NCBI GenBank assembly: GCA_902522415.1
Contig: CABYVI010000003.1
Location: forward strand, 5,092-69,091
Length of the DNA stretch: 64,000 nt
Reading direction: 5' to 3'
Source: an uncultured SAR116 cluster alpha proteobacterium
Lineage (GTDB): Bacteria; Pseudomonadota; Alphaproteobacteria; Puniceispirillales; GCA-002684695
Shown here: piece by piece, positions 715 to 31,039 of the stretch
Position numbering within the stretch: the first letter of the stretch is position 1
Layout of the letters: every line of letters begins with the position of its first letter
Notes under the pieces: model-generated
Seen by the model: only the letters and a program-made list of their open reading frames with translations
Told to the model about the DNA's origin: nothing
The model's database searches: none
Position numbers and translations under genes: made by a program

Positions 715-738
715 TTATAAATTAAGCGGTTTTAAGTT

Positions 739-1491: not shown

Positions 1492-1534
1492 CTTTCAAAA
1501 TTAATATTACATGTAATGAGCCAAATAATATTTT

Positions 1535-1550
1535 TGGCACAAGCATTGCT
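1535..1550 (+). promoter_or_regulatory. Sigma-54 (-24/-12) promoter upstream of flgG
   Basis: TGGCAC-AAGCA-TTGCT, exact consensus spacing, about 40 nt before the flgG ATG. Confidence 0.7.
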
Positions 1551-1588
1551 TATTTATCTCTGTATAATTTTATTAAACGGAGAAATTT

Positions 1589-2377: not shown

Positions 2378-2379
2378 TA

Positions 2380-3069
2380 ATGAATAAGGTGGCACGTATG
2401 ACCCGTTCACTATTTAAATCTTTACTTTGTATTTTCTTGCTTTCGGGATGTGTTAATACATACATTGAGGAAAAGGCATCACTAGAATTTGAGCCAATAT
2501 ACCCAGCTCAAGAATTTGATAAACCCAATAGAAATGCGAATGGTAGCATTTATGCTCAAGCAGGTGGCGGGTTATTTGCAACAGACAGAAGAGCGCAAAA
2601 TGTTGGTGATATACTTACTGTTAATTTAAGTGAGCAATTCAGCGCAAAAAAAGCTCAAAGTGCTACATCTGGAAAGACAGATGGATTTGAAGTAACTGTT
2701 CCACTTGGTCTTCAGAATAACTTAGGAACTACTGCAGACTTAACTGCTGGAACAAAACAGTCTTTTTCTGGTTCAGGAGGAGCGACACAAAGTAATTCAT
2801 TAACAGGAAAGATCAGCGTAACTGTAATTAGATTACTTGATAACGGAAATTTAGAAATAATGGGCCAAAAGAAGTTAACTCTTAATAATGGAAATGAATA
2901 CATCAGATTGAGTGGTGTTATCCGACCAGAGGATATTTCAGCGTCTAATGAAGTTAGCTCAAACAGAATTGCCCATGCATCTATAACTTATACTGGAACT
3001 GGTGATGTTCATGATACTAACCAACCTGGATGGCTAGGAAAAGCTTTAAGGGTGGTGTCCCCATTTTAG
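2380..3069 (+). CDS. flgH: Flagellar L-ring lipoprotein FlgH (alternative start ATG 2398 has the better RBS, AAGGTGG)
   Basis: Lipobox LLSGC; TGKISVTVIRLLDNGNLEIMGQKKLTLNNGNEYIRLSGVIRPEDI is typical of FlgH. Confidence 0.9.
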   Translation: MNKVARMTRSLFKSLLCIFLLSGCVNTYIEEKASLEFEPIYPAQEFDKPNRNANGSIYAQAGGGLFATDRRAQNVGDILTVNLSEQFSAKKAQSATSGKTDGFEVTVPLGLQNNLGTTADLTAGTKQSFSGSGGATQSNSLTGKISVTVIRLLDNGNLEIMGQKKLTLNNGNEYIRLSGVIRPEDISASNEVSSNRIAHASITYTGTGDVHDTNQPGWLGKALRVVSPF

Positions 3070-3078
3070 GAGATTTAA

Positions 3079-4209
3079 ATGACAAAGTTTAAAGTTTTTA
3101 TATTAGTATTTTCTTTTCTTCTTACAGGATTAAACTCGAGTTTACTTGCTGACAGATTAAAAGATTTAACATCTGTTGCTGGCATCAGGTCTAATCAACT
3201 TATTGGATACGGGTTAGTAGTTGGACTAGCAGGAACTGGTGACGGAAATACAAAGTTAATACAACAGTCCATGAAGTCAATGGTGTCACAACTTGGTCTT
3301 TCTACAGATTCTGGTTCACTAAATGGTAAAAATGCTGCATCAGTTATGATTACAGCTGAACTTCCTCCATTTATAAAACCAGGCCAGAATATTGATATTA
3401 CTGTTTCAACACTCGGAGCTGCTAAATCCTTAAGGGGCGGCACTTTACTCATGACACCATTAAAAGGTGCAGACGGTGAAACTTACGCTATTGCTCAAGG
3501 AAATCTTGTAGTTGGTGGTTTTGGCGTTGAGGGAGGTGATGGATCATCTTTAATTGTCAACATTCCTACTGTTGGAAGAATACCTAGAGGCGCTACTGTT
3601 GAAAAATTTGTAGAAATGCCATTTTTAGAAAAACCTTTTTTGATATTGAACCTTCATCAAGGTGATTTCAGTACAGCAACTAAAGTTTCAGAAGCCATTA
3701 ATGAAATCTTTGGTCCTGAAGTATCAGTTCCACTTGACTCAACATCAGTCAGAGTAAGAGCTCCTATGGAACCTTCACAAAAAGTTGCCTTTATGAGCCT
3801 CCTTGAAAACATAGAAATGGAACCAGCAAGACCGTCAGCTAAAGTAGTAGTCAATGCAAGATCTGGAACTATAGTCATTGGCGGTGATGTCAGAGTAACA
3901 CCTGCGGCCGTCACACACGGTAGTTTGACGGTTAAAGTAAAAGAAGATGTAAACGTAACAGCTGGAACACAAATTATGGGAGCTTTAGGTAACCAAATAG
4001 GCGGAGGTGGAGAGGCTGTCCAAAATCCAGATACTGAAATGGAAGTGACTGAGACTACTGCACAAGCATTTATTTTTGATCCTGGTGTCAAATTATCTTC
4101 AATAGTTGATGCAATGAATGCTGTAGGTGCAAGCTCAGCAGACCTTGTTGCTATACTTGAAGCTTTAAGAGAAGCAGGCGCCCTGAGGGCAGAATTAGTT
4201 ATTATTTAG
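3079..4209 (+). CDS. flgI: Flagellar P-ring protein FlgI
   Basis: Signal peptide; [13 protein letters not shown] and C-terminal [22 protein letters not shown]. Confidence 0.95.
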
Positions 4210-4220
4210 GTTGAAATTAT

Positions 4221-4541
4221 ATGGAAAATTTTATCACACCAGGCTTAGATCCAAAAACTTCTTTTGAAATAAGTTCGAATAAGACTAAAAAATTAAATGC
4301 AGACACTACAAGCTTAAATGAAGCAGCAGAGAGATTTGAGGCTTTATTTTTATCTCAAATGCTCAAATCAGCGAGAGCTGCAAAATTATCAGAAGATATA
4401 ATGGGCAACAATGCAACAGATACTTACTACGCAATGATGGATAATGAATTGGCAGAAAAATTATCAAAGGCAGGTAATTTTGGGATTGCAGAAGCTCTTA
4501 TCAGACAATTTGGTGGAAATGTAGAGGACAAAGATAAGTAA
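4221..4541 (+). CDS. flgJ: FlgJ-like rod-binding protein (rod-binding domain only, no muramidase domain)
   Basis: 106 aa; AAERFEALFLSQMLKSAR rod-binding motif; lies between flgI and flgK; stop overlaps the flgK ATG (TAATG). Confidence 0.7.
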   Translation: MENFITPGLDPKTSFEISSNKTKKLNADTTSLNEAAERFEALFLSQMLKSARAAKLSEDIMGNNATDTYYAMMDNELAEKLSKAGNFGIAEALIRQFGGNVEDKDK

Positions 4542-7500
4542 TGTCTAGTTTATTTGACATTGGTAAAAGTGCTGTTCAGTCATACCGTCAGGCATTGGCA
4601 GTAACTGGACAAAACATAGCTAATGTTAACACAGATGGATATAAAAGAAGAGAAGCTGACCTCAAAGAGGTTGGAGCTAGTAGTGGCAGTGTTACTTCAA
4701 CTGGTAATTCAGCAGGCCTTGGTGTTCGTGTAGAAAATATAAGAAGGTCATTTGATCAATTTTTATTAGATCGCTCAAGAAGTTCAATTGCAAATTATGA
4801 AAAACTAAAGTCTTACACAGATCAAATGAAGCAACTCGAAGATATTTTGCTCCCAGGTGACGCTGATATCGGTAGTTATATTGGTAGATTTTTTGGTGCT
4901 TTACAGGACATAGCTGCTAATCCTGGCGATCTTGCTCCTAGAACTGTTGCTCTTGAAGAGGGGAAAAGTCTGGCTGGTGCTTTTAGAAATCTATCTTTTC
5001 AACTAGAAGAAATGCAAAAAAATGGAAAATCTCAAGCTGATGATACTTGTTCGGCAATTAATATTGTTGTAACTCAATTAGTTGACGTAAATGAAAGGCT
5101 ACTATCTTCAAGTCTGGGAAGTTCTCCAAACTCAACTCTAGACTTAAGAGACAGGCTTCTTGAAGAATTATCAAAATTAACCGATATATCAGTTTCATAT
5201 AACGAGAGAAAAGACGTAACTGTAACAATTGGTAAAACAGGTGCAGGGCCAAAATTATTATCTGGGAAAATTGCAACAAAAATTGGAGTAGCAGATACGG
5301 GCGGTGTTATACAGGTTTTAATGGGTGCCGGAACATCAAACACTCCTACAAATCAAGTAACAGGTGGCGTTCTTGGAGGAGTTATAGACTCTTATGCCTT
5401 GATTGGTGATACCAATAGAGATATTGATAATCTTGCAGTTTTAATTTCTGAAACATTAAATGATCAGCATAAACAGGGTATTACTCTTGATGGAAAAGAG
5501 GGTGAAAATATTTTTGTAACCTCTGGTATGACTGTCAGTCCAGGTAGAGCAAACAGATCTTCTGTATCAGCAGAAATTGTTATAAGTGATATTGAAAAGC
5601 TTCCAAAGGGCCAACTTACAGCAAAATTTAATGAAGTTCAGAATAGATGGACACTATCTGGTTCATCTTTAGAAAACAATATTTTTGGAACGAGTGAAAT
5701 TAAAGGACCAGGTTTCTCATTAAATATTTTAGGCAAACCAACAGATGGAGACGAATTATCAACCACTCCACTTACTGGTGCAGCTTCAGGTATGCAATTT
5801 ATGTTGAGAAGGGCACAAGATTTTGCAGCTGCTTCAAAAACATTGGTTAGTGCAACAGTTTCAAATAAAGGAACTGCAGATATTACAGCAAGTACAGGAA
5901 AAATAAAAACGTCCGATAATCCTCCATTATTGAATAATGTATTTACAAATTCTAATTCTCCCCTAACAGCAACAAATTTTCTAAGTGATGGAGCTGTTTC
6001 TGCAATACCTACTGGATCACAAGAGGCGGATATTCTTAGTTTCAAAACTCAATCACAAATGAGTTTTCAATTAACTGAGGCCGAAATACCAACAACTACT
6101 TCACTGACACTCGAAGTAAATAGTGTTCCTCATGTATTTGACCTTACTTATTCAAGTGTATACCCGAAAGCAGTTGCATCAGAAAAATGGAAATCTTGCG
6201 GTGAAATTGCAACAGCTTTAAACAGAGGTATAATTAAAAATTCTAATTCACAAACACTTTCTGATTTAGGCCTTTTTGCCTCAGGATCTGGAGGAAGCAT
6301 AACGTTTGCATCATCTGAAAACGACTTCTCAGGCCAGTCAACTATTAGTTCAGGTGGCGGTACAATTTTAGGAATAAGCAAAGCATCAGCACTTCCATCA
6401 AATGTTCAGGTTTTTACAAGAGAGGGAAGGCATCTAGCTGGGACACCCCTTACGAAAGAAGATATTGCAAAACTTGTTACCATTGACAATGGCTTTAATG
6501 AGGGAGCAAGTTACAGAGCAGATTACATAAATTTAAGTGGTGATAAAGCATACAGAGGCTTGTCTTTAGAAAGAAAGACTGCAACAGGTGACCATGTAAT
6601 TACCTTGGGGTCTAACAGTAATTCGGTTACTGCAAATACATCAGGAATTGGTTCATCAATTGGTGCAACAATTACGACAGGAACAAATCACGGTTTCTCT
6701 ACTGGAGACACTGTTCAGTACCTCGCTAATAGTACTGCCCTAACTGGATTAACTGATAAAGCAGTATATAAAGTAGCATCTATTAATGGTACAAATCAAT
6801 TTACTCTCACAAAAACTGATGGAACAACACTTACTTACGGAGGTAGTAACGGCCATGCTAATGATAGTTTTAAACTTTTTAACGTTAATTCATCAGGTAT
6901 AATTCCATCTAAAACTATTTTCCCATCAAGTGCTGTATCTGCTTATAATGCAAGTATATCAATGTTTGGCGGTGAGAGCGGAAATATTGATATTCCAGCA
7001 GGTTCATCTGCAGGATTTTCTGCAAATAAAATAAATACTGACCTTGCAAATCTTGGCGTCCAAGCAGAAGCCATTACTAGGGTTGAATTGTCAATGGCAG
7101 AAATTGGTTCTCTGTCCTATGGTCAAACAAGAGTCAACCAGGGTTCTGGATCACCAGCTATAAGCTTATCATCTACTTCCACAAATGGTGCAGCAACTGG
7201 TGAAACAGAGTTTAAAGTTGGCGATATTATAAAATATGAAGCTGTTGATGACCATGCAACAAATGGTGGGCCTTTACAGGGATTAACTGAGTTTGCTGAA
7301 TATATGGTTGCAAGTGTTTCCTCTAACAGTATAACATTAAAAAATACAGATGGAACTTCATTAACCTATGGAAACACAGGCGGGGCAACAGGGGTTGCAT
7401 CTCATTTCGATAGTTTTACCTTGGTTAGAAGAACAGGCCAAGTAACATTAGACTTTGAGTCCAAGAACCAGGATGCAATCAATATTTCAGCTACAATTTC

Positions 7501-10500
7501 ATCTGATGATATGACCGATCTAGCAAAGAAAATTAATGAGCACTCTGCAAATACTGGAGTGACAGCATTTTTATCAGTTGATAAGAAAAAAGTGGTTCTT
7601 GAGAGTAAAGACGGTGACGATATAATGATGACAAATTTTTCATCATCAAGTCCACCACTTAATTTAAAATCACTAGGAGAAAACTTTGAAACTCTTGGTA
7701 ATGAGGTAAAATTAGATAATACTAACTTTGATGCAGCAAGATTTACTGGCTATGTTAAATTGAATGCTGGAGGATCATTTTCTTTAACAACAAACGCTGG
7801 TTCAAATAACTCAACAGTCTCTAGTACAACTGATATTTTTGAAAATAGCTTTATAGAAAAAAGCATGACACCAACTGGCGAGCAAATGACTCTAAAATTT
7901 GATGCATTTGAGGGTGCTGATGGAAATGGATCTTCAGTTGACGGTTCTATGGCTCTTGCTGCAGGTGGCGAGTATAAATTGACAATTCCTAATACTGGTT
8001 CAGGGACCTCATTCTCATCTACAGTCAAAACTAAAGATTTAGAAAGTATCACATCAAATACTGTCGCTGCAGAAATAGCAAAAAAATTACGCTCTGATAC
8101 ACTCATAGCTTCGGTATCAGGTAAAAGTTCAGTAAATGAATTACCTGAAGCAGGAGACAAGTTAGTTGTAAAATTTGCAGAGCAAAATTATACACTTACA
8201 ATGCTTGATAATGGACGTGATGCAGTGCCTGCAACTGCTACGTTAAGTGTAAGCAACGCAGATACAGTTGCAGCTGCAGGAAACCGAATTCATCTAATTT
8301 TATCAGCCGGCATGGAACCAGAAATTGATTTGGATTACACTGTTCAGGCAGGTCAAACTAATATTTCAAGTATAGTTTCAGGACTTAACACTGCTCTAAA
8401 TACTGCAGGAGCTTCTGATAAATACTCATTTTCATTCAGAGGAACCAATTTAATTTTATCTAGAAAGGATGGAGTTAATTTTCAATCATACAAGGGTGCA
8501 AATCAAACAACAAATATACTATTTTTTGATGGTGTTGATATTAGAACTGGAGCTGGTAGAGAGACTATTAATGGCGCAACAACAAATAAAACGCTAATCA
8601 CAACAGATGGGAAACTTTCTGTTGAGAGAGAAATTGAAATATCTGGTGGTGAAAAGAATAGGCTTAATGCTTATTTTGATGAAAATAAAAAGTTACAAAT
8701 TTTTGCTGGTGGGAGTCTTTCTGGACAGCAAATAATAATTCCTGATGATAACTCTGTTTCAGGTAATAGTAGTGCTGCCACTAGATTTGGAATAGATCGA
8801 GCAATAGGAACATTAACAGGAAATGAGATTGCAGTCCCTGCAACAACTTCGACTACGAATGTTAAAGTAGGTGATATTGATTATACTTTAACCATTAATC
8901 CAAATAATGGTGGTAAAGTAACTGCAGAATTAAAAGATGGAAATAATATTGTTCCAACTAACATATTACTCGATGCAACTGTAAACTGGATGAGCAATAT
9001 TATTACTTCAGATACAACGAGTATTGCATCTTCAGCTGGTGCAGTTATCACTTCTGATAGTGATCACGAATTTAAGGTTGGAGACAAAGTAAAATACTTT
9101 AAAGGAGGCACTGCACTTACTGGGTTAACACATAATACTGAATATACAGTTGCATCCATTGTAAAAAAATCTAGCTCTCAAGCTAATACGGTTGGCCTCA
9201 CGCGAGCTGCTAGTTCCACAATAACAACTGCTAATGCTCACGAGTTTAAGGTTGGAGACTTTGTAAAATACGTAAAAGGCGGGACGAATAACCTTCAAAG
9301 TCTGACTGATGGGGAGGTTTATAAAATAAAAGAGGTTGTTGGCACCAATCAATTTAAACTTCAAACAGCTGGTGGCAGTGACTTCACTTACGGTGGAACT
9401 GGTGGTAGTTCAGCAGATGCATTCATCCGATTTGACGGCTTTTCGTTAAAAAGTGCAGCAGGTGCAACCATTACTTACGGTGGTGGAAACGGCCACGCAG
9501 CTGATCAGTTTGTAAAATCAGAAAATATTAGAACCGCTGATACAACAGGGCAAACGAACAATACATCTGCAACAATAACAGTTGGTGAGGGTCACGGATT
9601 TAAAGTAGGAGATTCTGTGACTTATATTCCAGCGGGAACAAGCGTTCAAGGATTAGGGGCAAATATCAACTATAGAGTAAAAGCTCTTATTGGCTCAACT
9701 GGAATTTCGCTACAGACAACAGCAGGCGCTGATTTTGCTTACTTGGGAACAGATGGAAGTGCAAATGATGTTTTTGTAAAGGCTAACGGAAGAATATCAA
9801 TAAAGACCAATCCATATAGTAATAAGGAATATAAATTTGATCATACTGCTAACGCTGAGGCTCTAGGTATTAAAGTATCGGACTACAGAGTTAATGTTGA
9901 CAATGATAAATTAGTAATTGCATCCACTGAAGGAAAAGTTGTTTCTGCTGATACAACAGGAAGCAACACAAGCGTTAAAAGCTTAATTGGAAGCAATATT
10001 AATATTAAAAATGTTGGCAATGAGGATTTAATAATGATTGTCAATGGCGGTGGCGCAAGAAGTGTCGCAACAAGGTCTGACCCCCCTGCCCCAAATTATG
10101 AAGCAAAACCTTCAAACATTGACATCAAAGTTGCAAACGCTGAGGGTAGTGTTATCGAATTCCTTGATGCAACCACGGGTCATTCAATCGCTACAAGAAC
10201 ATTAGACACTGTAGGTAGAGCTGAAGCTGCTGGTTATAAAGTTGTTGTCAAAGGTAAAGGCCAGCTCGATGACAGTTTTAAAATATCAGACAATGCTGGT
10301 GGAACAGGTGACGCAAGAAACTTAGATGCCATGATAATGCTTCAAACTGAAGATGCAAATGGTCCTAATTCAGGTGGGTTCAGAGAAGTTTTTGACAATA
10401 TTGTCACAGGTGTAGGAGCATCAGTATTATCAGGCGGTCTATCTTTAGAGGCAGCTGAAGCAACAAAAGAAGCGGCAATTGCATCAGAACTAGAATTTTC

Positions 10501-10621
10501 TGGTGTGAGTTTGGACACTGAAGCTGCACAGCTTCTGGAGCAACAACAAGCATTTCAAGCTTCTGCAAGAATTCTATCAACTGCTAAACAACTATTTCAA
10601 ACATTACTAGACGTAGTGTAG
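4541..10621 (+). CDS. flgK: Giant hook-filament junction protein FlgK (HAP1), 2026 aa
   Basis: N-terminus SSLFDIGKSAVQSYRQALAVTGQNIANVNTDGYKRR and C-terminus EAAQLLEQQQAFQASARILSTAKQLFQTLLDV are FlgK-type. The ~1500-aa central region contains flagellin-IN-like motifs and five HGF-x-x-GD modules. Confidence 0.85.
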   Translation: MSSLFDIGKSAVQSYRQALAVTGQNIANVNTDGYKRREADLKEVGASSGSVTSTGNSAGLGVRVENIRRSFDQFLLDRSRSSIANYEKLKSYTDQMKQLEDILLPGDADIGSYIGRFFGALQDIAANPGDLAPRTVALEEGKSLAGAFRNLSFQLEEMQKNGKSQADDTCSAINIVVTQLVDVNERLLSSSLGSSPNSTLDLRDRLLEELSKLTDISVSYNERKDVTVTIGKTGAGPKLLSGKIATKIGVADTGGVIQVLMGAGTSNTPTNQVTGGVLGGVIDSYALIGDTNRDIDNLAVLISETLNDQHKQGITLDGKEGENIFVTSGMTVSPGRANRSSVSAEIVISDIEKLPKGQLTAKFNEVQNRWTLSGSSLENNIFGTSEIKGPGFSLNILGKPTDGDELSTTPLTGAASGMQFMLRRAQDFAAASKTLVSATVSNKGTADITASTGKIKTSDNPPLLNNVFTNSNSPLTATNFLSDGAVSAIPTGSQEADILSFKTQSQMSFQLTEAEIPTTTSLTLEVNSVPHVFDLTYSSVYPKAVASEKWKSCGEIATALNRGIIKNSNSQTLSDLGLFASGSGGSITFASSENDFSGQSTISSGGGTILGISKASALPSNVQVFTREGRHLAGTPLTKEDIAKLVTIDNGFNEGASYRADYINLSGDKAYRGLSLERKTATGDHVITLGSNSNSVTANTSGIGSSIGATITTGTNHGFSTGDTVQYLANSTALTGLTDKAVYKVASINGTNQFTLTKTDGTTLTYGGSNGHANDSFKLFNVNSSGIIPSKTIFPSSAVSAYNASISMFGGESGNIDIPAGSSAGFSANKINTDLANLGVQAEAITRVELSMAEIGSLSYGQTRVNQGSGSPAISLSSTSTNGAATGETEFKVGDIIKYEAVDDHATNGGPLQGLTEFAEYMVASVSSNSITLKNTDGTSLTYGNTGGATGVASHFDSFTLVRRTGQVTLDFESKNQDAINISATISSDDMTDLAKKINEHSANTGVTAFLSVDKKKVVLESKDGDDIMMTNFSSSSPPLNLKSLGENFETLGNEVKLDNTNFDAARFTGYVKLNAGGSFSLTTNAGSNNSTVSSTTDIFENSFIEKSMTPTGEQMTLKFDAFEGADGNGSSVDGSMALAAGGEYKLTIPNTGSGTSFSSTVKTKDLESITSNTVAAEIAKKLRSDTLIASVSGKSSVNELPEAGDKLVVKFAEQNYTLTMLDNGRDAVPATATLSVSNADTVAAAGNRIHLILSAGMEPEIDLDYTVQAGQTNISSIVSGLNTALNTAGASDKYSFSFRGTNLILSRKDGVNFQSYKGANQTTNILFFDGVDIRTGAGRETINGATTNKTLITTDGKLSVEREIEISGGEKNRLNAYFDENKKLQIFAGGSLSGQQIIIPDDNSVSGNSSAATRFGIDRAIGTLTGNEIAVPATTSTTNVKVGDIDYTLTINPNNGGKVTAELKDGNNIVPTNILLDATVNWMSNIITSDTTSIASSAGAVITSDSDHEFKVGDKVKYFKGGTALTGLTHNTEYTVASIVKKSSSQANTVGLTRAASSTITTANAHEFKVGDFVKYVKGGTNNLQSLTDGEVYKIKEVVGTNQFKLQTAGGSDFTYGGTGGSSADAFIRFDGFSLKSAAGATITYGGGNGHAADQFVKSENIRTADTTGQTNNTSATITVGEGHGFKVGDSVTYIPAGTSVQGLGANINYRVKALIGSTGISLQTTAGADFAYLGTDGSANDVFVKANGRISIKTNPYSNKEYKFDHTANAEALGIKVSDYRVNVDNDKLVIASTEGKVVSADTTGSNTSVKSLIGSNINIKNVGNEDLIMIVNGGGARSVATRSDPPAPNYEAKPSNIDIKVANAEGSVIEFLDATTGHSIATRTLDTVGRAEAAGYKVVVKGKGQLDDSFKISDNAGGTGDARNLDAMIMLQTEDANGPNSGGFREVFDNIVTGVGASVLSGGLSLEAAEATKEAAIASELEFSGVSLDTEAAQLLEQQQAFQASARILSTAKQLFQTLLDVV

Positions 10622-11917: not shown

Positions 11918-11934
11918 TAAAATTAAAAAAGTGT

Positions 11935-11960
11935 TAAACATTTTTTTATATTGACGTTTA
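11935..11960 (+). promoter_or_regulatory. Sigma-28-like promoter of flagellin 1 (TAAA-N14-GACGTTTA)
   Basis: TAAACATTTTT...GACGTTTA. The same TAAACATTTTT box and the same 14-nt spacing occur at 14335-14360 before flagellin 2. Resembles TAAA-N15-GCCGATAA. Confidence 0.45.
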
Positions 11961-11967
11961 TAAATAA

Positions 11968-12024
11968 TGAAGTGGTCAGCGCCCTTCAAAAAATTAATAT
12001 TATTTAGTCAATGAAGGGATAGTT
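11968..12024 (+). promoter_or_regulatory. Flagellin 1 leader: hairpin with GGTCAGCG loop plus alternative RBS-sequestering pairing
   Basis: TGAAG-TGGTCAGCGCC-CTTCA hairpin. CCCTTCA can instead pair with the RBS repeat TGAAGGG at 12012-12018. Confidence 0.5.
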
Positions 12025-13527
12025 ATGACTTCCATCAATAGTGACCAAATGTCTGCAATGGTTCTCGCGAGCCTTAATAAGTCTAATGCAACTATGCAAG
12101 AATCTATGCAAAGGTTATCTACAGGTAAAAGAATTAACCATGCAGGTGACGATGCTGCTGGTCTGTCTATCTCAGCAAAACTCAGAGCGCAGGTTGATAG
12201 TTTAAATGCAGCAATTAAAAATTCATCAGATGCATTGGCAATGGTGAGTACGATTGAAGGTGCACTCGTTGAAACTACGACTATACTCCAAAGAATGAGA
12301 CAATTATCTGTTCAGTCTTCCTCTGATACCAACACAGGAAATGACAGAACTTATCTTCAAGACGAAGTAAATCAATTAATTACTGAAATTAATAGAATTT
12401 CTACTAATACAGAATTTAACTCAACAAAACTTTTAGACGGAACTTTTACTGATAAAAATATTCAAATAGGAACAGCATCTAATCAAGTTTTAAGACTAGG
12501 TGTAAGTGCTACAGATTCTACAAAATTAGGAGCATATCAACTAGATAGTGTGGATGAGAGTATTGCTCCAGAAGATACTCATGCATCTGCTAAAACTGTT
12601 TTAAATGCTTTGTATGATGCCACAGCAGATTACGTTGTTAAAGGTACTTTTGGCACGTTTACAGCTTCAGTTGATGCTGGAGCTGATGCAAGAGATGTTG
12701 CTTCATCTTTTAATTTAATAGGAGGGAATACAGGCGTTAACGCGACAGCACTTACTCGTGCGAAAATGACCGTTTCTGCAGCAGCAACATTCAGTTTTAC
12801 ATTTGAGGGTAAAAGTACAACAACTTCTCAAATAACAGCTACTGTAACTTCTGCGACTGACTTGACTGCAATAAAAGATGCTATTAATGCAGTATCGGGT
12901 TCTACAGGTATTTCAGCTGCTTTGACATCTGATAAATCTGGGGTAGAAATTACACAAGCAGAGGGATACGATATTATTATCGGTGATGTATCAACTGGTT
13001 CAACTGACGCTAACTTACTAGTTACGGCCATGGATATGGATGGAAACCTTGATACAGGAAATACGAGAACATTAGATGGTGACGGAACAACTGGTGACTC
13101 AACAGCGATTGTTGGTACAGTTCGCCTTTCAAGTCAAAACGCTTATACGGTTTCGCCAGGTCATGCGAATAATCACTTTTCTGCTGCTACTACAGAATTG
13201 ACTGCATCACATAGTACAATTTCAGCAGTTTCTCTTACAACAAAGGAAGGTGCGACAAAAGCTATGTCAGTTATTGATGGTGCTTTGTTAATGATATCAG
13301 GTATTAGATCAAATATGGGTTCAGCTAACAATAGACTACAATCTACTATCGATAATCTAAGTAATATTGCAGTGAACGCTCAAAAATCACTTTCAACAAT
13401 AGAAGATGCTAACTTTGCTGAAGAAACTGCAAAACTTACAAAAGCACAAATACTTGCGAAAGCAGCTACATCTATGCTTGCTCAAGCGAATAAAGCAAAA
13501 GAAACAATGCTTGCATTGCTGCAATAA
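12025..13527 (+). CDS. fliC: Flagellin (500 aa)
   Basis: RLSTGKRINHAGDDAAGLSIS N-terminus, NRLQSTIDNL...AQANKAKETMLALLQ C-terminus; central flagellin-IN-like motif DLTAIKDAINAVSGSTGISAAL. Confidence 0.95.
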   Translation: MTSINSDQMSAMVLASLNKSNATMQESMQRLSTGKRINHAGDDAAGLSISAKLRAQVDSLNAAIKNSSDALAMVSTIEGALVETTTILQRMRQLSVQSSSDTNTGNDRTYLQDEVNQLITEINRISTNTEFNSTKLLDGTFTDKNIQIGTASNQVLRLGVSATDSTKLGAYQLDSVDESIAPEDTHASAKTVLNALYDATADYVVKGTFGTFTASVDAGADARDVASSFNLIGGNTGVNATALTRAKMTVSAAATFSFTFEGKSTTTSQITATVTSATDLTAIKDAINAVSGSTGISAALTSDKSGVEITQAEGYDIIIGDVSTGSTDANLLVTAMDMDGNLDTGNTRTLDGDGTTGDSTAIVGTVRLSSQNAYTVSPGHANNHFSAATTELTASHSTISAVSLTTKEGATKAMSVIDGALLMISGIRSNMGSANNRLQSTIDNLSNIAVNAQKSLSTIEDANFAEETAKLTKAQILAKAATSMLAQANKAKETMLALLQ

Positions 13528-13557: not shown

Positions 13558-14100
13558 TTATTTATCAGATGGCTTCAAAGATATAGCATCAAAAATTGTA
13601 AATTCTTCAGTAGCCAGATCTCTTAAAAAATCAATATCTTTCTCGTCGTCAATTTTCCATCCACTGGGTGACGGTTTGCTTAAATCAGATCTCAGTGAAT
13701 ACATATAAGACTTAAACATTTTTATAATGCCTCTTTCTTCGTAATTACGATCTCTTTCTCCATCAAAAATTGATCCAAGAAGCGGTTTGCGATTTCTGAT
13801 TTTACCATTATCAAAGTTAATCGTATTATATATGAAACCGTCTAGGTACTTAGTTGCATCTGAACCCGCCTCTACTTCTGCTAATATCCTAATTATATCT
13901 TCTGCAATTGATGAGATCTCAATTGGATTGACTTCGTCATATTTTTCTAAAAGAGCTTTAGAATATCTTCTTGCCACTAAGTCGATGGGTATATCCTTGA
14001 CAAGAAAATCTCTAGCTGTAAGACCAATACAAGCTGCGTAAACCCATTGAGGGCAATATACAGCCATTTTACCTCCACTAGATAATAAGTTTGATAACAT
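13558..14100 (-). CDS. Hypothetical protein (180 aa) on the opposite strand inside the flagellin array
   Basis: Intact ORF, convergent with flagellin 1; no recognisable motif. Confidence 0.4.
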   Translation of the reverse strand: MLSNLLSSGGKMAVYCPQWVYAACIGLTARDFLVKDIPIDLVARRYSKALLEKYDEVNPIEISSIAEDIIRILAEVEAGSDATKYLDGFIYNTINFDNGKIRNRKPLLGSIFDGERDRNYEERGIIKMFKSYMYSLRSDLSKPSPSGWKIDDEKDIDFLRDLATEEFTIFDAISLKPSDK

Positions 14101-14334
14101 AATAATACACTTCGTTTAAAAATTATAGAACAAAGTAACTATTGCAAATTATATGCCCAAACAGTCACTTTTTCTAAATAAAGCTGAAAAGAAAAAAACA
14201 TTTAACTCTACATTATTATTTAGGCAATTTTAAACAAAATTTTTGTGAAAAAACCCATAATAAACGACACAAAAAAAATTTGTTTAGAAATAAAAAAAAA
14301 TAATAAAATCAATAACTTTTTACTAAAAATAAAC

Positions 14335-14360
14335 TAAACATTTTTACTATATGCCGTTCA
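14335..14360 (+). promoter_or_regulatory. Sigma-28-like promoter of flagellin 2 (TAAA-N14-GCCGTTCA)
   Basis: TAAACATTTTT...GCCGTTCA, same architecture as 11935-11960. Confidence 0.5.
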
Positions 14361-14370
14361 TTTACTTGTA

Positions 14371-14434
14371 CGGAGGTGGTCAGCGAAAACCTTCTCCGCG
14401 TTTAAATTTAATTAACTCGGAAAGGAGACAAAAA
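14371..14434 (+). promoter_or_regulatory. Flagellin 2 leader: hairpin with GGTCAGCGAAAA loop and anti-SD arm
   Basis: CGGAGGT-GGTCAGCGAAAA-CCTTCTCCG. The 3' arm CCTTCTCCG is also complementary to the RBS region CGGAAAGGAG at 14418-14427. Confidence 0.5.
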
Positions 14435-15952
14435 ATGGTCTCAGTGAATACTAATATTGCGTCAGTTGACGCTAGAAACACATTAATGGGTAATAATGTA
14501 ACGATGGAAAAAGCATTCGAAAGACTTTCAAGTGGAAAGAGAATTAACAGCTCAAGTGATGATGCTGCGGGTCTTCAAATTGCAAATAGCCTAACATCTC
14601 AAATTAATGGTCTAAAAATGGCAGCAAAAAATGCTGGTGATGGTATTTCATTAGTAAATACAGTTGATGGAGCTTTAAGCGAAGCAACTGACATTTTACA
14701 AAGAATGCGTGAACTTGCTGTTCAATCTTCTTCAGATACAAATGCTGGACAAGATAGAGTTTTTATCCAAGAAGAAATAAACGCACTTAATACAGAACTT
14801 AATAGAATTTCATCTACCACTCAATTTAATGGGGTGAACGTTCTTGATGGCACATTCGGTGATGTATCACTTCAGGTAGGTTATGATCCAAGCCAAACTG
14901 TTAATATGAGTGTTACTTCTTCAGACTCTGCAACATTAGGTGCATACCAGGATACATCAACAGTCGAAACATTGGCCGTAGTTGATACATATGCATTAGC
15001 AACCGCAGGTTTAACGACAACTATTGCTGACGCAGGTGATTACACAGTTTCAGGTTTTTTTGGTTCTGATACAGCATATATCGCAGCTGAGGCAGGGGCA
15101 AGAGACACAGCTGCAGCTTTCAACTTAATTGCAGGTAATACTGGCATTACAGCAACTGCAGAAACCAGAGCAAGACTTACTGTAAGTGCTGCCGCAACAT
15201 TAACTTTTGACCTTTATGGCAAAAGTTCAACTAAGTCTTCAGTGACAGCAGTTATTTCTGACACATCTGATTTATCAAACTTGAAGGATGCCATTAACGC
15301 AGTCAGTGGATCCACTGGGATTTCCGCAACTCTTACATCTGATAAAGCAGGCGTCAATATAGTTAATCCAGAGGGTTATACGATATTTTTTGCTGATGTG
15401 ACAGCTGCTGGCGGTACTGATGCAGATCTACAGGTTGCAAATTTAACTGTCGACGCTGCTGGTGCTGAAACAACAGCTAACCAAGTTGCAATGAAAGGTG
15501 ATGCAGCTACTGATGATAGTACATATGTATTAGGTCAAGTTACATTGTCTTCAGATAAAGCATTTGCTTTAAGTTCTGGAAATGCTGCAAACCATTTTGC
15601 AACAGATACTTCAGTTCAAACTAGTGCGTTGAGCCAACTAGGCGATATTAACCTTAAAAATATCCATGGTGCTCAAAAAGCTTTAGCGATAATTGATAAA
15701 GCCATTAATATGATCGATACAACACGTTCAACAATGGGTGCTTTAAATAATCGTCTTGAAAGTACTATTAACAATCTGAATAATATTCAGGTAAAAACGG
15801 AAGCGTCTCTTTCCAGAGTAATGGATGCTGATTATGCAGAAGAGACAACTTCCTTATCTAAATCTCAAGTCTTAACTCAGGCAGCTACTGCTATGCTAGC
15901 GCAAGCAAACCAAGCTCCTCAAGGAGTATTAAGATTACTTCAGGCAGGATAA
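14435..15952 (+). CDS. fliC: Flagellin (505 aa; true start MVSVNTN, not the ORF-track ATG at 14351)
   Basis: AAAGGAGA RBS 7 nt before ATG 14435; RLSSGKRINSSSDDAAGLQIA ... AQANQAPQGVLRLLQ. Confidence 0.93.
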   Translation: MVSVNTNIASVDARNTLMGNNVTMEKAFERLSSGKRINSSSDDAAGLQIANSLTSQINGLKMAAKNAGDGISLVNTVDGALSEATDILQRMRELAVQSSSDTNAGQDRVFIQEEINALNTELNRISSTTQFNGVNVLDGTFGDVSLQVGYDPSQTVNMSVTSSDSATLGAYQDTSTVETLAVVDTYALATAGLTTTIADAGDYTVSGFFGSDTAYIAAEAGARDTAAAFNLIAGNTGITATAETRARLTVSAAATLTFDLYGKSSTKSSVTAVISDTSDLSNLKDAINAVSGSTGISATLTSDKAGVNIVNPEGYTIFFADVTAAGGTDADLQVANLTVDAAGAETTANQVAMKGDAATDDSTYVLGQVTLSSDKAFALSSGNAANHFATDTSVQTSALSQLGDINLKNIHGAQKALAIIDKAINMIDTTRSTMGALNNRLESTINNLNNIQVKTEASLSRVMDADYAEETTSLSKSQVLTQAATAMLAQANQAPQGVLRLLQAG

Positions 15953-16004
15953 AGGCCGCCATTGGATTTGAGAAACTAATGGTAGTTTAGTCTACCTACT
16001 ACGG

Positions 16005-16048
16005 AGCCCCAATTTAGAAATGACCGTCTAAGTTGGGGCTAAAAAAAA
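16005..16048 (+). other. 14-bp hairpin (loop AATGACCG) followed by an A8 run, in the flagellin 2/3 intergenic region
   Basis: AGCCCCAATTTAGA-AATGACCG-TCTAAGTTGGGGCT, one G.U pair; no U-run, so not a canonical terminator. Confidence 0.5.
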
Positions 16049-16084
16049 CTCAAGATGAAAGTCTTGAACAACAAGGAGATAAAT

Positions 16085-17674: not shown

Positions 17675-17713
17675 CATTGGACGTTGACCTCAAAATAAAA
17701 TAAAGGTGCAACA

Positions 17714-27692: not shown

Positions 27693-27708
27693 AGGCATAG
27701 ATATTGCA
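27693..27708 (+). promoter_or_regulatory. Sigma-54-like promoter, divergent from the fliD promoter
   Basis: AGGCAT-AGATA-TTGCA (GG-N10-GC kept), 24 nt before ATG 27732. Confidence 0.55.
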
Positions 27709-27731: not shown

Positions 27732-28367
27732 ATGTTTAATCTATCGCCTCAATATAATTTGCTTTTAGATCAATATAGTTACATGGCAGAAAACGGATAC
27801 CATAGAACTGATGGTCAATTTGTAAAAAATGTATATTCAGATGCTGAGCCTTTGAAGTTTTCAGAGAGCATAAAGGAAATTGTTAAGTGTTTTAATTCAA
27901 AAAATGCTTTAGATTATGGTTCAGGTGGAACTAATTTAAACACTAAAATACTAAAAGAAGATATTAAGTTTATTGACTTCATAGGTCTAAAAAAAATTTA
28001 TTCTTATGAGCCTGCTAGAAAAAAAGGCAACCCTAAAAAATGTGATTTGGTTTTATGCTTTGATGTTCTTGAACATATCTTTATTAATGATATTCCGTGG
28101 GTTTTAAAAGAATTATTTGCAAATGCAAAACAATGTGTAATCATAAATGTTGCTTGCTATAAAGCTGCTGCACTTTTACCTAATGGAGAAAATGCACACA
28201 TAACAGTAAGACCTCCCCATTGGTGGTTAGGACAAATCGAGTGTATAAGCACATTGTATCCTGAAGTTTATTGGGCACTTTTTACTTCTCAAGGTCATCA
28301 GAATTTTGATTTTCTTGGTGTGCATAGAATGAAAGACAAAATAGATAGCAAAAAATTTGTCCAGTAA
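27732..28367 (+). CDS. Putative class I SAM-dependent methyltransferase (211 aa)
   Basis: Motif I-like LDYGSGGT, and CDLVLCFDVLEHI; sits in the flagellin-modification neighbourhood. Confidence 0.55.
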   Translation: MFNLSPQYNLLLDQYSYMAENGYHRTDGQFVKNVYSDAEPLKFSESIKEIVKCFNSKNALDYGSGGTNLNTKILKEDIKFIDFIGLKKIYSYEPARKKGNPKKCDLVLCFDVLEHIFINDIPWVLKELFANAKQCVIINVACYKAAALLPNGENAHITVRPPHWWLGQIECISTLYPEVYWALFTSQGHQNFDFLGVHRMKDKIDSKKFVQ

Positions 28368-28424
28368 AAAAAATATTAAAAATTCTTAAAAGTTTTATAC
28401 AAATCTCCGTTACTATATATGAGA

Positions 28425-28440
28425 CTATTTCGCTGACCTC
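28425..28440 (+). other. 16-nt sequence exactly complementary to the loop of sRNA copy 2, displayed in the hairpin GACTAT/ATAGTC
   Basis: CTATTTCGCTGACCTC is the reverse complement of GAGGTCAGCGAAATAG at 30448-30463. Confidence 0.8.
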
Positions 28441-28442
28441 AT

Positions 28443-28478
28443 AGTCCCTCCATATATTAATGGAGGGACTTTCACTTT
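28443..28478 (+). terminator. Probable intrinsic terminator of the 27732 transcript
   Basis: AGTCCCTCCA-TATATTAA-TGGAGGGACT followed by the T-rich TTCACTTT. Confidence 0.5.
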
Positions 28479-28494
28479 ATATTGTAATATGATT

Positions 28495-28510
28495 AGGCAT
28501 AAATATTGCA
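28495..28510 (+). promoter_or_regulatory. Sigma-54-like promoter upstream of the TPR gene at 28544
   Basis: AGGCAT-AAATA-TTGCA. Confidence 0.55.
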
Positions 28511-28543
28511 CATATCTATTGGTAAAACTTAGATGTGTGAAAA

Positions 28544-30163
28544 ATGTTAATAGATAGAAAACTATCAACAGCTGAAAAACTCAGAAAAATCGGAAATTTT
28601 GAACAAGCAATTATTATTTATGAAGAAATTCTCTCTAAATTCCCATTAAATAAACGTGCTCAATTAGGGAAATCTTCTTGCATAAAATATGCACCTCAAA
28701 TGGAGTTGGATTTTGTCATAAACTTATTTGATAAAAAATTATATAATGAAGCTGAGAGCGAAATTCAGAATTTGATAGTTAAATATAAAAATGATGAGAA
28801 TTTATATAATATTTATGGTGCTATCTTATCTAGACTACAAATATTTGACAAAGCAAAAGAGAAATATCAAAAAGCATTAGAATTGAACCCTAGATTCCCT
28901 GAAGCTCTCAATAATCTTGCGGAATTAATGAACCAAACTAAAGAATTTAATGAAGCAAAGCAATTATGCGAAGAGGCCATAAAACTTAATAAGAATTATG
29001 CAGAGGCTTACAATAATTTAGGTAATTCATATCTAAACCTAGGATCTTACAAGGAAGCAAATACTTTTTATGAAAAATCTTTATTCCTTAACAATCCTAA
29101 CAAATATAGCGTTTTAAATAATTTAGGATTAGTGAATGCTTTTCTAAATAATTTTAAAGTTTCCAATAAATATTTAATTCAGGCAACTAATTTGATCCCA
29201 AAAGAAATTGAAGCAGTTAATACATTAGCTTCAATAGCAATTTATCAAGATAAAGCGGATTATAGTAATATTTCTGATCATTTAATAAAAAATTTAGATT
29301 TTTATGACACAAAAAGTAAAATCTTCATTTTAACTTACTTAAGCATCCTCTTTTATATTGAAGGTGAAATAGAGAAATCAAAAAATTATAACAAGAATCT
29401 AATAAATAGATTAAATGAATTCTTAGAAAACAGAAGAATTTTTGAACCTAAGGATTTAAATTTTGTAAAGGCTTATAGTTCTTTTTTGCGTTCTTTAAAT
29501 AAAATGGCTGCCCAAGAAAGCTTAACTAATAATTTATCAAATAAAAATATAATTTATCATTTAGGTGAGAGCCATTGCCTATCCTTTGCTCATAGAAACA
29601 TTCAAATCAATGATAAAAAATTTAGAATTAAACCTTTAATAACTGTAGGAGCTAAAGCCTGGCATCTCACAGACAAAAGACATAATAAGCAAAAACCTTT
29701 TTTCATTTCGCAATTGAAAAAGGTTCCTTACAATTCAAAGGTATTTATATCTATTGGCGAAATAGATACCAGAATTAGTGAAGGTATTATTACATTCCAT
29801 CAGAAATCAAAAAAAGATTTAAATGAAATAATTAAAGAAACTGTATATGGTTATGTGAGTTTTATTGAAAGCTTTTTAGAGAGTAAACAAATAGAAAAAT
29901 TCTATTTTAGTGTTCATGCCCCTTATCAAATTCGAGAAAATAAAGACTATAACTCTGAACTTGAACTGAGAAGAATAGAAGTTATCAAGACTTTCAATAA
30001 TTATTTAGAAAAATATACTAAAGAGTTTAATTCTAAATTTATAGACACCTTTAGCTTTACATGTAATGAAAAAGGCGAGTCCAACAAGAAATATATGATT
30101 GATCCAACACATCTTTCACCAAAAGCTCTACCAATCATTGAAACAAAGATTAATAATCTTTAG
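28544..30163 (+). CDS. TPR-repeat protein with an uncharacterised ~220-aa C-terminal domain
   Basis: N-terminal TPRs similar to the neighbouring TPR enzymes. I do not recognise the C-terminal half (HLGESHCLSF...ISIGEIDTR...). Confidence 0.6.
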   Translation: MLIDRKLSTAEKLRKIGNFEQAIIIYEEILSKFPLNKRAQLGKSSCIKYAPQMELDFVINLFDKKLYNEAESEIQNLIVKYKNDENLYNIYGAILSRLQIFDKAKEKYQKALELNPRFPEALNNLAELMNQTKEFNEAKQLCEEAIKLNKNYAEAYNNLGNSYLNLGSYKEANTFYEKSLFLNNPNKYSVLNNLGLVNAFLNNFKVSNKYLIQATNLIPKEIEAVNTLASIAIYQDKADYSNISDHLIKNLDFYDTKSKIFILTYLSILFYIEGEIEKSKNYNKNLINRLNEFLENRRIFEPKDLNFVKAYSSFLRSLNKMAAQESLTNNLSNKNIIYHLGESHCLSFAHRNIQINDKKFRIKPLITVGAKAWHLTDKRHNKQKPFFISQLKKVPYNSKVFISIGEIDTRISEGIITFHQKSKKDLNEIIKETVYGYVSFIESFLESKQIEKFYFSVHAPYQIRENKDYNSELELRRIEVIKTFNNYLEKYTKEFNSKFIDTFSFTCNEKGESNKKYMIDPTHLSPKALPIIETKINNL

Positions 30164-30172
30164 TTTGTTGTT

Positions 30173-30188
30173 TGGCATAAATATTGCT
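30173..30188 (+). promoter_or_regulatory. Sigma-54 promoter of sRNA copy 1
   Basis: TGGCAT-AAATA-TTGCT. Confidence 0.65.
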
Positions 30189-30197
30189 CAATATAAA

Positions 30198-30275
30198 TGT
30201 TCCTAGAGGTCAGCGAAAATAGCTAGGAACAATCTCCGATGGCGGTCTTGTCTTTAGTGGCAAGGCCGCTTTTTT
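30198..30275 (+). ncRNA. Candidate small RNA, copy 1 (about 78 nt)
   Basis: GTTCCTAG-AGGTCAGCGAAAATAG-CTAGGAAC hairpin, CAATCTCCGATG linker, terminator GCGGTCTTG...CAAGGCCGC plus T6. Confidence 0.6.
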
Positions 30276-30413
30276 AACATTATATCTAACTAGATTAATT
30301 TTATAAAACAGTTATTAATTTGAAGTAATTGTCAATACAAACTTAAGCACCTATACGATATATCTAGGCAATTATATGATATTTTTAATACTATTTTTTC
30401 AAGTCTTAAACTT

Positions 30414-30429
30414 TGGCATGACTATTGCA
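30414..30429 (+). promoter_or_regulatory. Sigma-54 promoter of sRNA copy 2
   Basis: TGGCAT-GACTA-TTGCA. Confidence 0.65.
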
Positions 30430-30439
30430 AATCATAAGT

Positions 30440-30524
30440 AGTTCCTAGAGGTCAGCGAAATAGCTAGGAACAATCTCCGATGGCGGTCTTGTTGATTTAA
30501 CTCTTCAAGACCGCTAATTTTTTT
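30440..30524 (+). ncRNA. Candidate small RNA, copy 2 (about 85 nt)
   Basis: Same hairpin (loop AGGTCAGCGAAATAG), same linker, terminator GCGGTCTTG...CAAGACCGC plus T7. Confidence 0.6.
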
Positions 30525-30536
30525 AATTTCATACTT

Positions 30537-30552
30537 TGGCATGACTATTGCA
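30537..30552 (+). promoter_or_regulatory. Sigma-54 promoter of sRNA copy 3
   Basis: TGGCAT-GACTA-TTGCA, identical to copy 2. Confidence 0.65.
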
Positions 30553-30562
30553 AATTATTAGT

Positions 30563-30648
30563 CAGTTCCTAGAGGTCTGCGAAAATAGCTAGGAACAATC
30601 TCCGATGGCGGTCTTGTTGATTTAACTCTTCAAGACCGCTAATTTTTT
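30563..30648 (+). ncRNA. Candidate small RNA, copy 3 (about 86 nt)
   Basis: Near-identical direct repeat of copy 2; loop variant AGGTCTGCGAAAATAG; same terminator plus T6. Confidence 0.6.
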
Positions 30649-30658
30649 GAGTTTAATT

Positions 30659-31039
30659 TTATGCTAATAAATTAACTTTTTTAGTAAATCTTGGTTCTTC
30701 AACAGACCAACTTGATATTCTTGAATATTTCGTTTGCGCAACATTATGAGTATACATAGGAGATGATAAAGATTTAGCCATAAGAAATGTTTCAGATGTA
30801 ACAGCTGAAGGTGCTCCATCAGGGTGAGAAATTCTATTCATAGAATATCTTTTCAAGTCCAAATTAGTTTTAGTGACTGCGCCAGGGTTAAAAACTCCAA
30901 CAGAAGTTTGTCTTTCACTTGGCATTAAATTTGCACTAATTCCAAGAAGTTGAGTGTTAGTTTGAGACAAATTGTTTCTAACATTAACGTTTCGGCTAAT
31001 ATTTGAGTTAGAAATATTGTTCAAAATTGGATTATCCAT
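30659..31039 (-). CDS. Hypothetical S/T/N-rich protein (126 aa), cysteine-free, probably disordered
   Basis: Intact ORF divergent from fliS; its composition resembles flagellar export substrates or regulators, but I find no diagnostic motif. Confidence 0.4.
   Translation of the reverse strand: MDNPILNNISNSNISRNVNVRNNLSQTNTQLLGISANLMPSERQTSVGVFNPGAVTKTNLDLKRYSMNRISHPDGAPSAVTSETFLMAKSLSSPMYTHNVAQTKYSRISSWSVEEPRFTKKVNLLA

Follow-up and report, generated by a model that had tools for sequence, protein, structure and literature searches.

The 64,000-nucleotide (nt) stretch of the SAR116 contig CABYVI010000003.1 analyzed here (positions 5,092 to 69,091; hereafter, the window) carries a flagellar gene cluster with three tandem small RNA (sRNA) genes and, at 28386-28479, a short noncoding element that is antisense to an sRNA loop. 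The question raised by this locus is what the element encodes. The first-pass annotation had offered two answers: that the 3' untranslated region (3' UTR) of a sigma-54-transcribed methyltransferase gene, or an RNA derived from it, pairs with the sRNAs, or that the element is an inverted sRNA relic on the minus strand. Comparison with related loci argues that the element probably encodes an autonomous plus-strand RNA of ~55-60 nt (hereafter, the anti-sRNA), which would pair with the sigma-54 sRNAs and act as their antagonist or sponge. Rfam 15 yielded zero matches over the whole window at gathering thresholds and, at E <= 1 in 28300-30700, two chance-level matches only, both inside a coding region. 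Full-text literature searches found neither RNA described in SAR116.

Seed, sRNA partners and covariation

The sequence CTATTTCGCTGACCTC at 28425-28440 of the plus strand (the seed) is the exact reverse complement of 30448-30463 in sRNA copy 2, its sole exact partner, and covers the closing G and the entire 15-nt loop of that sRNA. The match in sRNA copy 1 (30206-30221) shows 3 mismatches in ungapped register, which really represent one extra A. None of 100 dinucleotide-preserving shuffles reached >=3 matches to the 16-mer; calculated analytically, ~3e-5 exact matches of 16 nt would be expected in 2 x 64 kb. Thus, both the antisense match and the view that chance is a very unlikely source of it, as put forward in the first-pass annotation, were borne out.

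The partner sRNAs are specified by three tandem plus-strand genes (30174-30647), each of which consists of a sigma-54-type GGCA-N6-TTGC box, a 5' hairpin (arms GTTCCTAG/CTAGGAAC, displayed loop AGGTCAGCGAAA(A)TAG), the linker AATCTCCGATG and a terminator; the GGCA-N6-TTGC pattern occurs 13 times in the window vs 1.55 expected. Copy 1 (30174-30276) has its box at 30174-30187, its hairpin at 30199-30230 with the loop AGGTCAGCGAAAATAG, and its terminator at 30241-30270. Copy 2 (30415-30522) has its box at 30415-30428 and its hairpin at 30441-30471, followed by linker and terminator. Copy 3 (30538-30647; box 30538-30551) fits the seed less well, as its loop includes GGTCTGCG (30572-30583), with an A-to-T change, and 4 A's. 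Copies 2 and 3, whose promoters and terminators are identical, represent a recent tandem duplication. The linker and terminator start, ATCTCCGATGGCGGTCTTG (30231-30249, 30472-30490 and 30597-30615; the invariant linker is also given as AUCUCCGAUGG), did not vary in ~50 copies from 28 metagenome loci, and this invariance suggests a second functional site in the sRNAs; within the window, the best target complementary to the linker had 2 mismatches in 12. Convergent to the sRNA array in every locus lies a conserved open reading frame (ORF) of 126 amino acids (aa) on the minus strand (30659-31039), which has no Pfam or NCBIfam match and occupies the flaG position of related gene orders.

The element itself combines promoter-like boxes, TTAAAA (28386-28391) and CCGTTA (28407-28412) separated by 15 nt, with the seed, which can be written (GA)CUAUUUCGCUGACCUC, and a hairpin AGTCCCTCCAT/ATGGAGGGACT at 28443-28470. 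A terminator scan recognized the latter as an intrinsic terminator with an 11-bp stem and the tail TTCACTTTAT, the U-rich stretch TTTCACTTT reaching 28479. From the positions of the boxes and terminator, the transcript is predicted to span 28421-28479. This order of parts, with the single-stranded seed at the 5' end and the terminator hairpin after it, was common to 26 loci, and the seed was predicted to be unpaired with a probability of 0.81 in the window and 0.81-0.94 over all lineages. As would be expected of an anti-sRNA or sponge, the complementarity (16/16 nt) covers the whole loop of sRNA copy 2, and both partners are predicted to be accessible there (unpaired probabilities, 0.81 and 0.76).

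It had been suggested that the seed is displayed in the loop of a hairpin GACTAT/ATAGTC and forms loop-loop kissing duplexes with the sRNAs. The two arms (28423-28428 and 28441-28446) do flank the 16-mer, but the hairpin is weak (-2.5 kcal/mol alone), and it competes with the terminator hairpin, whose 5' arm ATAGTC overlaps. Moreover, the minimum-energy folds, in which the seed is 0.81-0.88 unpaired, do not contain it. Of its pairing, only 3-5 bp remain in L002, L005 and L023, and lineage B (see below) has none. Because the seed is a 5' single strand in the predicted folds, a linear-to-loop contact rather than a kissing interaction would be expected. Similarly, the sRNA linker octamer AATCTCCG is indeed present at 28402-28409, where it overlaps the CCGTTA box, but it appears to be coincidental: the orthologous sites differ (AATTCTCCG in L001, AATCTTTCCG in L002 and TTCAACCG in L003), and the extra occurrences of the octamer amounted to one independent event vs 0.62 expected.

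To place the element in its relatives, loci were gathered via neighboring proteins, one metagenome scan with the linker ATCTCCGATGGCGGTCTTG (34 stretches, comprising 28 real sRNA loci and 6 chance matches) and flagellin homologues. Both an sRNA and a complementary element were present in 26 SAR116 loci, which belong to two lineages (A and B) and in every case carry the element and the sRNAs on the same strand. In the window and five relatives (L001, L002, L018, L023 and L038), the element directly follows the gene for a 211-aa protein, a position that would fit a 3' UTR sharing its terminator. In eight others (L003, L005, L013, L017, L022, L029, L039 and L044), it follows a gene for an 847-aa TPR-methyltransferase, ~100 nt upstream of a single sRNA gene, and nothing similar is found after the 211-aa gene. 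In the 12 lineage-B loci, it is flanked by two sRNA genes; the strong terminator of the first precedes it, and no coding gene lies upstream. Each copy retained the promoter-like boxes, the seed and the GC hairpin. Because relatives place it after another gene or between sRNA genes, the element, judged by these positions, is an autonomous unit that relocates as a whole and not a property of a methyltransferase 3' UTR, as the first-pass annotation had proposed. Distant homologues of the 211-aa protein (L009-L011) lie outside flagellar clusters and were uninformative.

The terminator hairpin was conserved by compensatory change. At >=3 stem positions, C-G pairs were exchanged for T-A among the relatives, the stem variants GTCCCTCC/GGAGGGAC, GTCCCCCC/GGGGGGAC, GTCCTCCC/GGGAGGAC and GTCCCCTC/GAGGGGAC contained zero disrupted pairs, and the hairpin of L042 has a U.G pair that is tolerable on the plus strand only. 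In lineage B, a T-run of 5-8 after the hairpin provides a strong tail. An inverted repeat ACGTAT..ATACGT upstream of the lineage-B seed was also considered; its 5' arm varies without compensation, and it is probably not a selected hairpin.

The complementarity between seed and sRNA loop was likewise kept by compensatory change across the 26 loci, which supports the core of the first reading in the first-pass annotation, a plus-strand RNA that pairs with the sRNA loops as sponge or antagonist. In lineage A, the sRNA loop GCG...AAAUAG (...GAGGUCAGCGAAA(A)(A)UAG) is matched by the seed CUAUUU...CGC (...CUAUUU(U)(U)CGCUGACCUC), and in lineage B, the loop GCA...AAAUUG (...AGGUCAGCAAAAUUG) is matched by the seed UAAUUUUGC (...GUAAUUUUGCUGACCU). 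Two positions thus changed on both sides between the lineages, from G:C to A:U and from A:U to U:A. In addition, the length of the A-run in the loop equals that of the T-run in the seed, at 3/3 in L001, L002, L018, L038 and copy 2 of the window, 4/4 in L003, L013, L017, L029, L039 and L044, and 5/5 in L005 and L022; imperfect paralogous sRNA partners were found in window copies 1 and 3, copy 2 of L018, copy 2 of L002, and L023.

Pair counts were based on 13 distinct sRNA/anti-sRNA combinations, drawn from 43 pairs in the 26 loci; MAFFT alignments A1, A2 and A4 were excluded from these counts on account of register shifts between lineages. Standard pairs occupied 92.4% of cells in register, compared with 34-51% when the partner was slid by 1-3 columns, and both-side changes affected two pairs (8 cells). 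The observed covariation score or paired fraction was matched in 0/500 shuffles. One further locus bears on what the sRNA loop follows in evolution. L046, a flagellin locus, shares an overlap of 446 nt (88.6% identity) with the lineage-B locus L042, and its flagellin leaders still carry GGTCAGCG. Because the leaders stayed GCG in a genome linked to lineage B, this comparison favors the interpretation that the sRNA loop tracks the anti-sRNA, and is constrained by RNA-RNA pairing, and not by a protein or DNA-binding factor shared with the flagellin leaders. Leaders of this type would still be able to pair with the lineage-B seed via a G.U pair.

A candidate promoter of the flagellin type

The sigma-28 (FliA) promoter consensus is TAAA-N15-GCCGATAA. 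The promoters of flagellins 1 and 2 (CTAAAC-N13-GCCGTTCAT or TTAAAC-N14-ACGTTTAT) are sigma-28-like, and the 802-aa flagellin has a sigma-54-type box. The boxes upstream of the seed were TTAAAA-N15-CCGTTA in 14/14 lineage-A copies, representing two genomic contexts, with GCTGACC of the seed beginning 18-21 nt past the second box. In lineage B, they were CTAAxA-N13-G(A/C)CGT(A/T)T, also kept at a fixed distance. A core position weight matrix (PWM) was built from 10 flagellin promoters (flagellins 1 and 2 of 5 genomes), and on this matrix the lineage-B anti-sRNA promoters scored 8-18.8 bits, with tail fractions of up to 6e-4 against the window background. A full-width PWM ranked the site of the window 597th of 127,938 positions. 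A third strong flagellin-type promoter, TCTAAAC-N13-GTCGTTTAT, was observed on the minus strand at 14260-14288; together with a sigma-54-type box at 14144-14157 of the same strand, it stands upstream of an unannotated 180-aa ORF (13558-14100, minus strand) that is conserved between fla1 and fla2 in the relatives.

Competing explanations of the element

Our preferred explanation is that the anti-sRNA would be made from a flagellin-type, sigma-28-like promoter, with an unpaired 5' seed and a GC-rich terminator hairpin, and that the seed would pair with the 15-17-nt loop of one to three neighboring sigma-54 sRNAs by a linear-to-loop contact followed by stem invasion. Through such pairing, middle-tier (sigma-54) and late-tier (sigma-28) flagellar RNAs would titrate each other. 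Several observations weigh against this explanation. The promoter of the window scored only 6.2 bits on the core PWM (tail fraction, 1.5e-3), has a spacer 1 nt longer, and amounts to a ~4% chance in a 60-nt search space. A sigma-70-like TATAAT-type hexamer lies just upstream of the seed, and no FliA/sigma-70-family gene was found among the window ORFs. The terminator has a weak U-tail in the window (TTTCACTTT) and none in L002 and L005. The register of the alignment used for covariation, A5, was set by hand with N-padding, and there were few independent covariation events, ~four (the split into two clades and two or three changes in the length of the A-run), because the sequences fall into few clades. 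Finally, L045 has an sRNA gene but no anti-sRNA element within 3.8 kb; this lineage-B locus (1-3815) has the order fliD, single sRNA gene, 126-aa gene, and the partner may lie elsewhere or be absent. The loose pattern TAAA-N15/16-[CA]CGTT was not enriched in the window (4 matches vs 4.0 expected). In view of the PWM scores, this lack of enrichment and the absence of fliA from the window, the putative promoter is described here as flagellin-type and sigma-28-like, with good confidence in this assignment for lineage B and moderate confidence for the window.

The seed might act only within the 3' UTR of the sigma-54-transcribed 211-aa mRNA, or in a processed fragment of it, as a classical 3'-UTR sponge without a promoter of its own. 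The upstream gene (coding sequence 27732-28367, plus strand) does have a GGCA-N6-TTGC box at 27694-27707, in line with the sigma-54 transcription named in the first-pass annotation, but the methyltransferase identity that it had assigned to the product rests on sub-threshold matches (E = 0.002; 18 bits vs a cut-off of 27). A terminator scan between the stop codon (28367) and the hairpin at 28443-28470 found none; therefore, the 211-aa mRNA of the window probably includes the seed and has its end at 28470 as well. The modest match of the window lineage to a promoter of its own fits this explanation as well. However, a different gene lies upstream in 8 lineage-A loci and an sRNA terminator in 12 lineage-B loci, and TTAAAA-N15-CCGTTA (A) or CTAAxA-N13-GACGTwT (B) is found at a fixed distance throughout, which makes action through the 3' UTR alone unlikely. 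Read-through and an own promoter may coexist in the window. A separate explanation, which we consider improbable, is that the GGUCAGCG loops are sites of an RNA-binding protein controlling flagellin translation, with the sRNAs serving as CsrB/RsmY-style sponges and the anti-sRNA masking them. The 8-nt loop core is invariant in the fla1/fla2 leaders of 5 genomes while the stems vary, and the sRNA genes are multi-copy, which speaks for this explanation. In contrast, each sRNA has a single, GGA-free loop (AGGUCAGCG), no CsrA or FliW domain and no FlbT- or FlaF-like gene was detected among the window ORFs, and the sRNA loop changed with the anti-sRNA and not with the leaders. Such a protein would, in any case, extend the RNA-RNA pairing rather than exclude it.

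The motif could also be a double-stranded DNA operator for a flagellar regulator, in which case its orientation would be irrelevant and the RNA complementarity a by-product. All copies, in flagellins 1/2, the sRNA genes and the anti-sRNA element, are located ~10-30 nt downstream of promoter-like boxes, and a concerted change of sites with protein specificity would mimic covariation. Yet the motif in the sRNAs and flagellin leaders always lies within a hairpin with covarying stems, and the match between sRNA and anti-sRNA, unlike the flagellin sites, reaches lineage-specific flanks and the length of the A-run. Furthermore, the lineage-B-linked genome kept GCG in its flagellins while the sRNA and anti-sRNA became GCA/TGC, and sRNA copies with 3 and 4 A's coexist in one genome, so that we regard an operator as very unlikely. 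Least credible is the inverted minus-strand relic of the first-pass annotation, a degenerate fourth sRNA copy, and likewise a functionless inverted duplication whose similarity is preserved by gene conversion. On the minus strand, the 16-mer does read exactly as the sRNA loop, but just these 16 nt are in common, with no relation between the flanking sequences. The minus strand lacks a GGCA-N6-TTGC box near 28480-28560, its hairpin precedes the motif instead of following it, and the sRNA linker ATCTCCGATGG and sRNA terminator are missing. Because the relatives (26 loci) keep same-strand boxes, a hairpin maintained by compensatory change, a U.G pair that fits the plus strand only, and a T-run, with no sign of decay, the relic was ruled out.

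Flagellin leaders, known systems and the surrounding cluster

An autonomous anti-sRNA could bind further RNAs. The core GGTCAGCG is invariant in the fla1 and fla2 leaders of five genomes, while the surrounding stems vary. The promoter and leader of flagellin 1 (11933-12027, plus strand) show GGTCAGCG (11974-11981) in a 5' hairpin, the 3' arm of which, CCCTTC, can pair with the Shine-Dalgarno (SD) sequence GAAGGG instead. Those of flagellin 2 (14333-14437, plus strand) show GGTCAGCGAAAA (14378-14389) in a hairpin CGGAGG/CCTTCTCCG; the fla2 leader has these 12 nt and the UCUCCG segment in common with the sRNAs, and its complementarity to the seed extends over 11 nt. In fla1, three segments (the 5' arm, the anti-SD and the SD) covaried three ways in 5 genomes (GAAG/CUUC/GAAGGG, AGAG/CUCU/AGAGGG and GGAG/CUCC/GGAG..), and fla2 CGGAGG/CCUUCUCCG is exchangeable with the ribosome-binding-site sequence GGAGA. 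Both leaders (11962-12027 and 14362-14437), with a 5' hairpin showing GGUCAGCG, look like translational switches. The predicted gain in cofolding with the anti-sRNA was -21.3 kcal/mol for sRNA2, -16.8 for the fla2 leader, -16.1 for sRNA1, -12.4 for sRNA3 and -10.0 for the fla1 leader; the controls, the fla54 leader and the fla3 upstream region, gained -3.8 and -3.3.

Because the core GGUCAGCG is shown in their 5' hairpins, the fla1 and fla2 leaders could be bound by the anti-sRNA as well (8-12 bp). Such binding would most likely open the 5' hairpin and free the anti-SD, which could then block the ribosome-binding site and repress the translation of flagellins 1 and 2. As decoys, the better-matched sRNAs (14-16 bp) would set the timing of this closure. 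We tentatively propose, as a possibility that we hold to be doubtful, a three-way competing-RNA circuit that times flagellin synthesis, with the sRNAs mimicking the fla1/fla2 5' hairpins. In such a circuit, the sRNAs, sharing the loop GGUCAGCG(AAAA) and the UCUCCG anti-SD-like segment, would soak up a sigma-28-driven repressor RNA, so that flagellin translation would be on while hook-basal-body (sigma-54) expression is high and throttled once that stops.

Two other sequences were considered. In the 5' UTR of the sigma-54 flagellin, the 10-nt segment CGTTGACCTC (17682-17691) appears antisense to the sRNA loop, one of its pairs being G.U; 4 other genomes kept no more of it than GACCTCAA, and the cofold gain was -3.8 kcal/mol, making this a weak lead, and the segment is possibly a weak sRNA target or an internal anti-SD. 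GCTGACC in the fla3 coding sequence of the relatives can be accounted for by the encoded protein and does not occur in the fla3 coding sequence of the window. Between fla2 and fla3 (15953-16084), a conserved structured RNA with three hairpins and no promoter motif showed compensatory changes at 8/29 predicted pairs in 5 genomes; it is possibly a processing or stabilizing element of a fla2-fla3 co-transcript.

The kind of system represented by the sRNAs and their antisense partner is known; new are the RNA family, the clade that hosts it, the gene as a stand-alone unit and the mimicry of leaders. Sponges and anti-sRNAs include SroC-GcvB, 3'ETS-leuZ-RyhB/RybB, and the prophage RNAs AgvB and AsxR. 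In IS10 RNA-IN/RNA-OUT and CopA/CopT, pairing starts where an accessible 5' end or loop meets a large hairpin loop, and the helix is extended from there; these plasmid or transposon pairs are cis-encoded and fully complementary, whereas the SAR116 pairing covers ~16 nt between separate genes. The RNAs MotR, FliX, FlgO and UhpU of E. coli depend on Hfq. They are, like the putative anti-sRNA, sigma-28-dependent, late-flagellar sRNAs that feed back on flagellar synthesis, but they are derived from mRNA UTRs and act on mRNAs, and none is described as antisense to an sRNA loop (PMC10578931). Sponges are likewise conserved mainly as the complement of a functional sRNA region, with mutual titration; CJnc180/CJnc190 is a cis-encoded antagonist pair (PMC8687705). 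Known sponges mostly arise as by-products of mRNAs or tRNA precursors or are cis-antisense RNAs, whereas the SAR116 element is trans-encoded and stand-alone in a core flagellar cluster, and its RNA would target a hairpin loop that is also present in mRNA leaders.

The nearest parallels come from flagellar regulation in other bacteria. In Campylobacter jejuni, the RpoN-dependent CJnc230 (FlmE) is processed from flgE mRNA and represses flgM and Cj1387c; together with the FliA-dependent CJnc170 (FlmR), it resembles the SAR116 RNAs in joining a sigma-54-tier and a sigma-28-tier sRNA, and the effects of the C. jejuni pair on filament assembly are opposed (PMC11187230). However, the SAR116 RNAs are directly complementary and covary, and the sequences are unrelated. 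The same study reports no direct CJnc230-CJnc170 pairing and does not use the word 'sponge', and the idea that FlmR is a sponge of FlmE finds no support in it (PMC11187230). In Vibrio cholerae, FlaX, a ProQ-associated sRNA cut from the flaA 3' UTR, represses flaB mRNA, so that an sRNA linked to a sigma-54 flagellin controls the translation of a sigma-28 flagellin by pairing, in a cluster laid out like that of the window; no anti-sRNA partner or leader mimicry is described for it, and there is no sequence similarity (PMC11879080).

Posttranscriptional control of flagella has been worked out in few model pathogens. The present loci come from SAR116 (Puniceispirillales), which is abundant in the sea and mostly uncultured, and provide covariation-backed sequence evidence for an sRNA/anti-sRNA pair that would link the sigma-54 tier of the flagellar hierarchy to the sigma-28 tier. 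The element would be a rare instance, within a core chromosomal operon cluster, of a stand-alone gene dedicated to an anti-sRNA. Confirmation of the pairing alone would establish a new Rfam family pair and a marker for flagellar clusters in marine metagenomes, and the circuit, if true, would represent target mimicry between sRNAs and mRNA leaders across two sigma-factor tiers. The circuit is compact and directly testable, as it comprises two short RNAs and two leaders, offers defined compensatory mutations and could be rebuilt in a heterologous host.

The cluster that holds these genes has a Vibrio/Pseudomonas-like layout. It starts with flgE to flgL, four flagellins and TPR-, sulfotransferase- and methyltransferase-like genes, and continues with fliD, fliS, two sigma-54 enhancer-binding proteins, fliE to fliR, and flhB. 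The nearest relative is a SAR116 single-cell genome assembly (93% amino-acid identity), and further relatives are named SAR116 or Candidatus Puniceispirillales. The FlgK-like hook-associated protein (4541-10621) is very large, with 2026 aa in the window and 2027-2030 aa in the relatives. At 61417-63455, three consecutive genes form a predicted bacterial ubiquitin-like conjugation cluster: the first is E1-like (ThiF), the second encodes 98 aa and has weak ubiquitin-like matches, and the third is E2-like (UQ_con).

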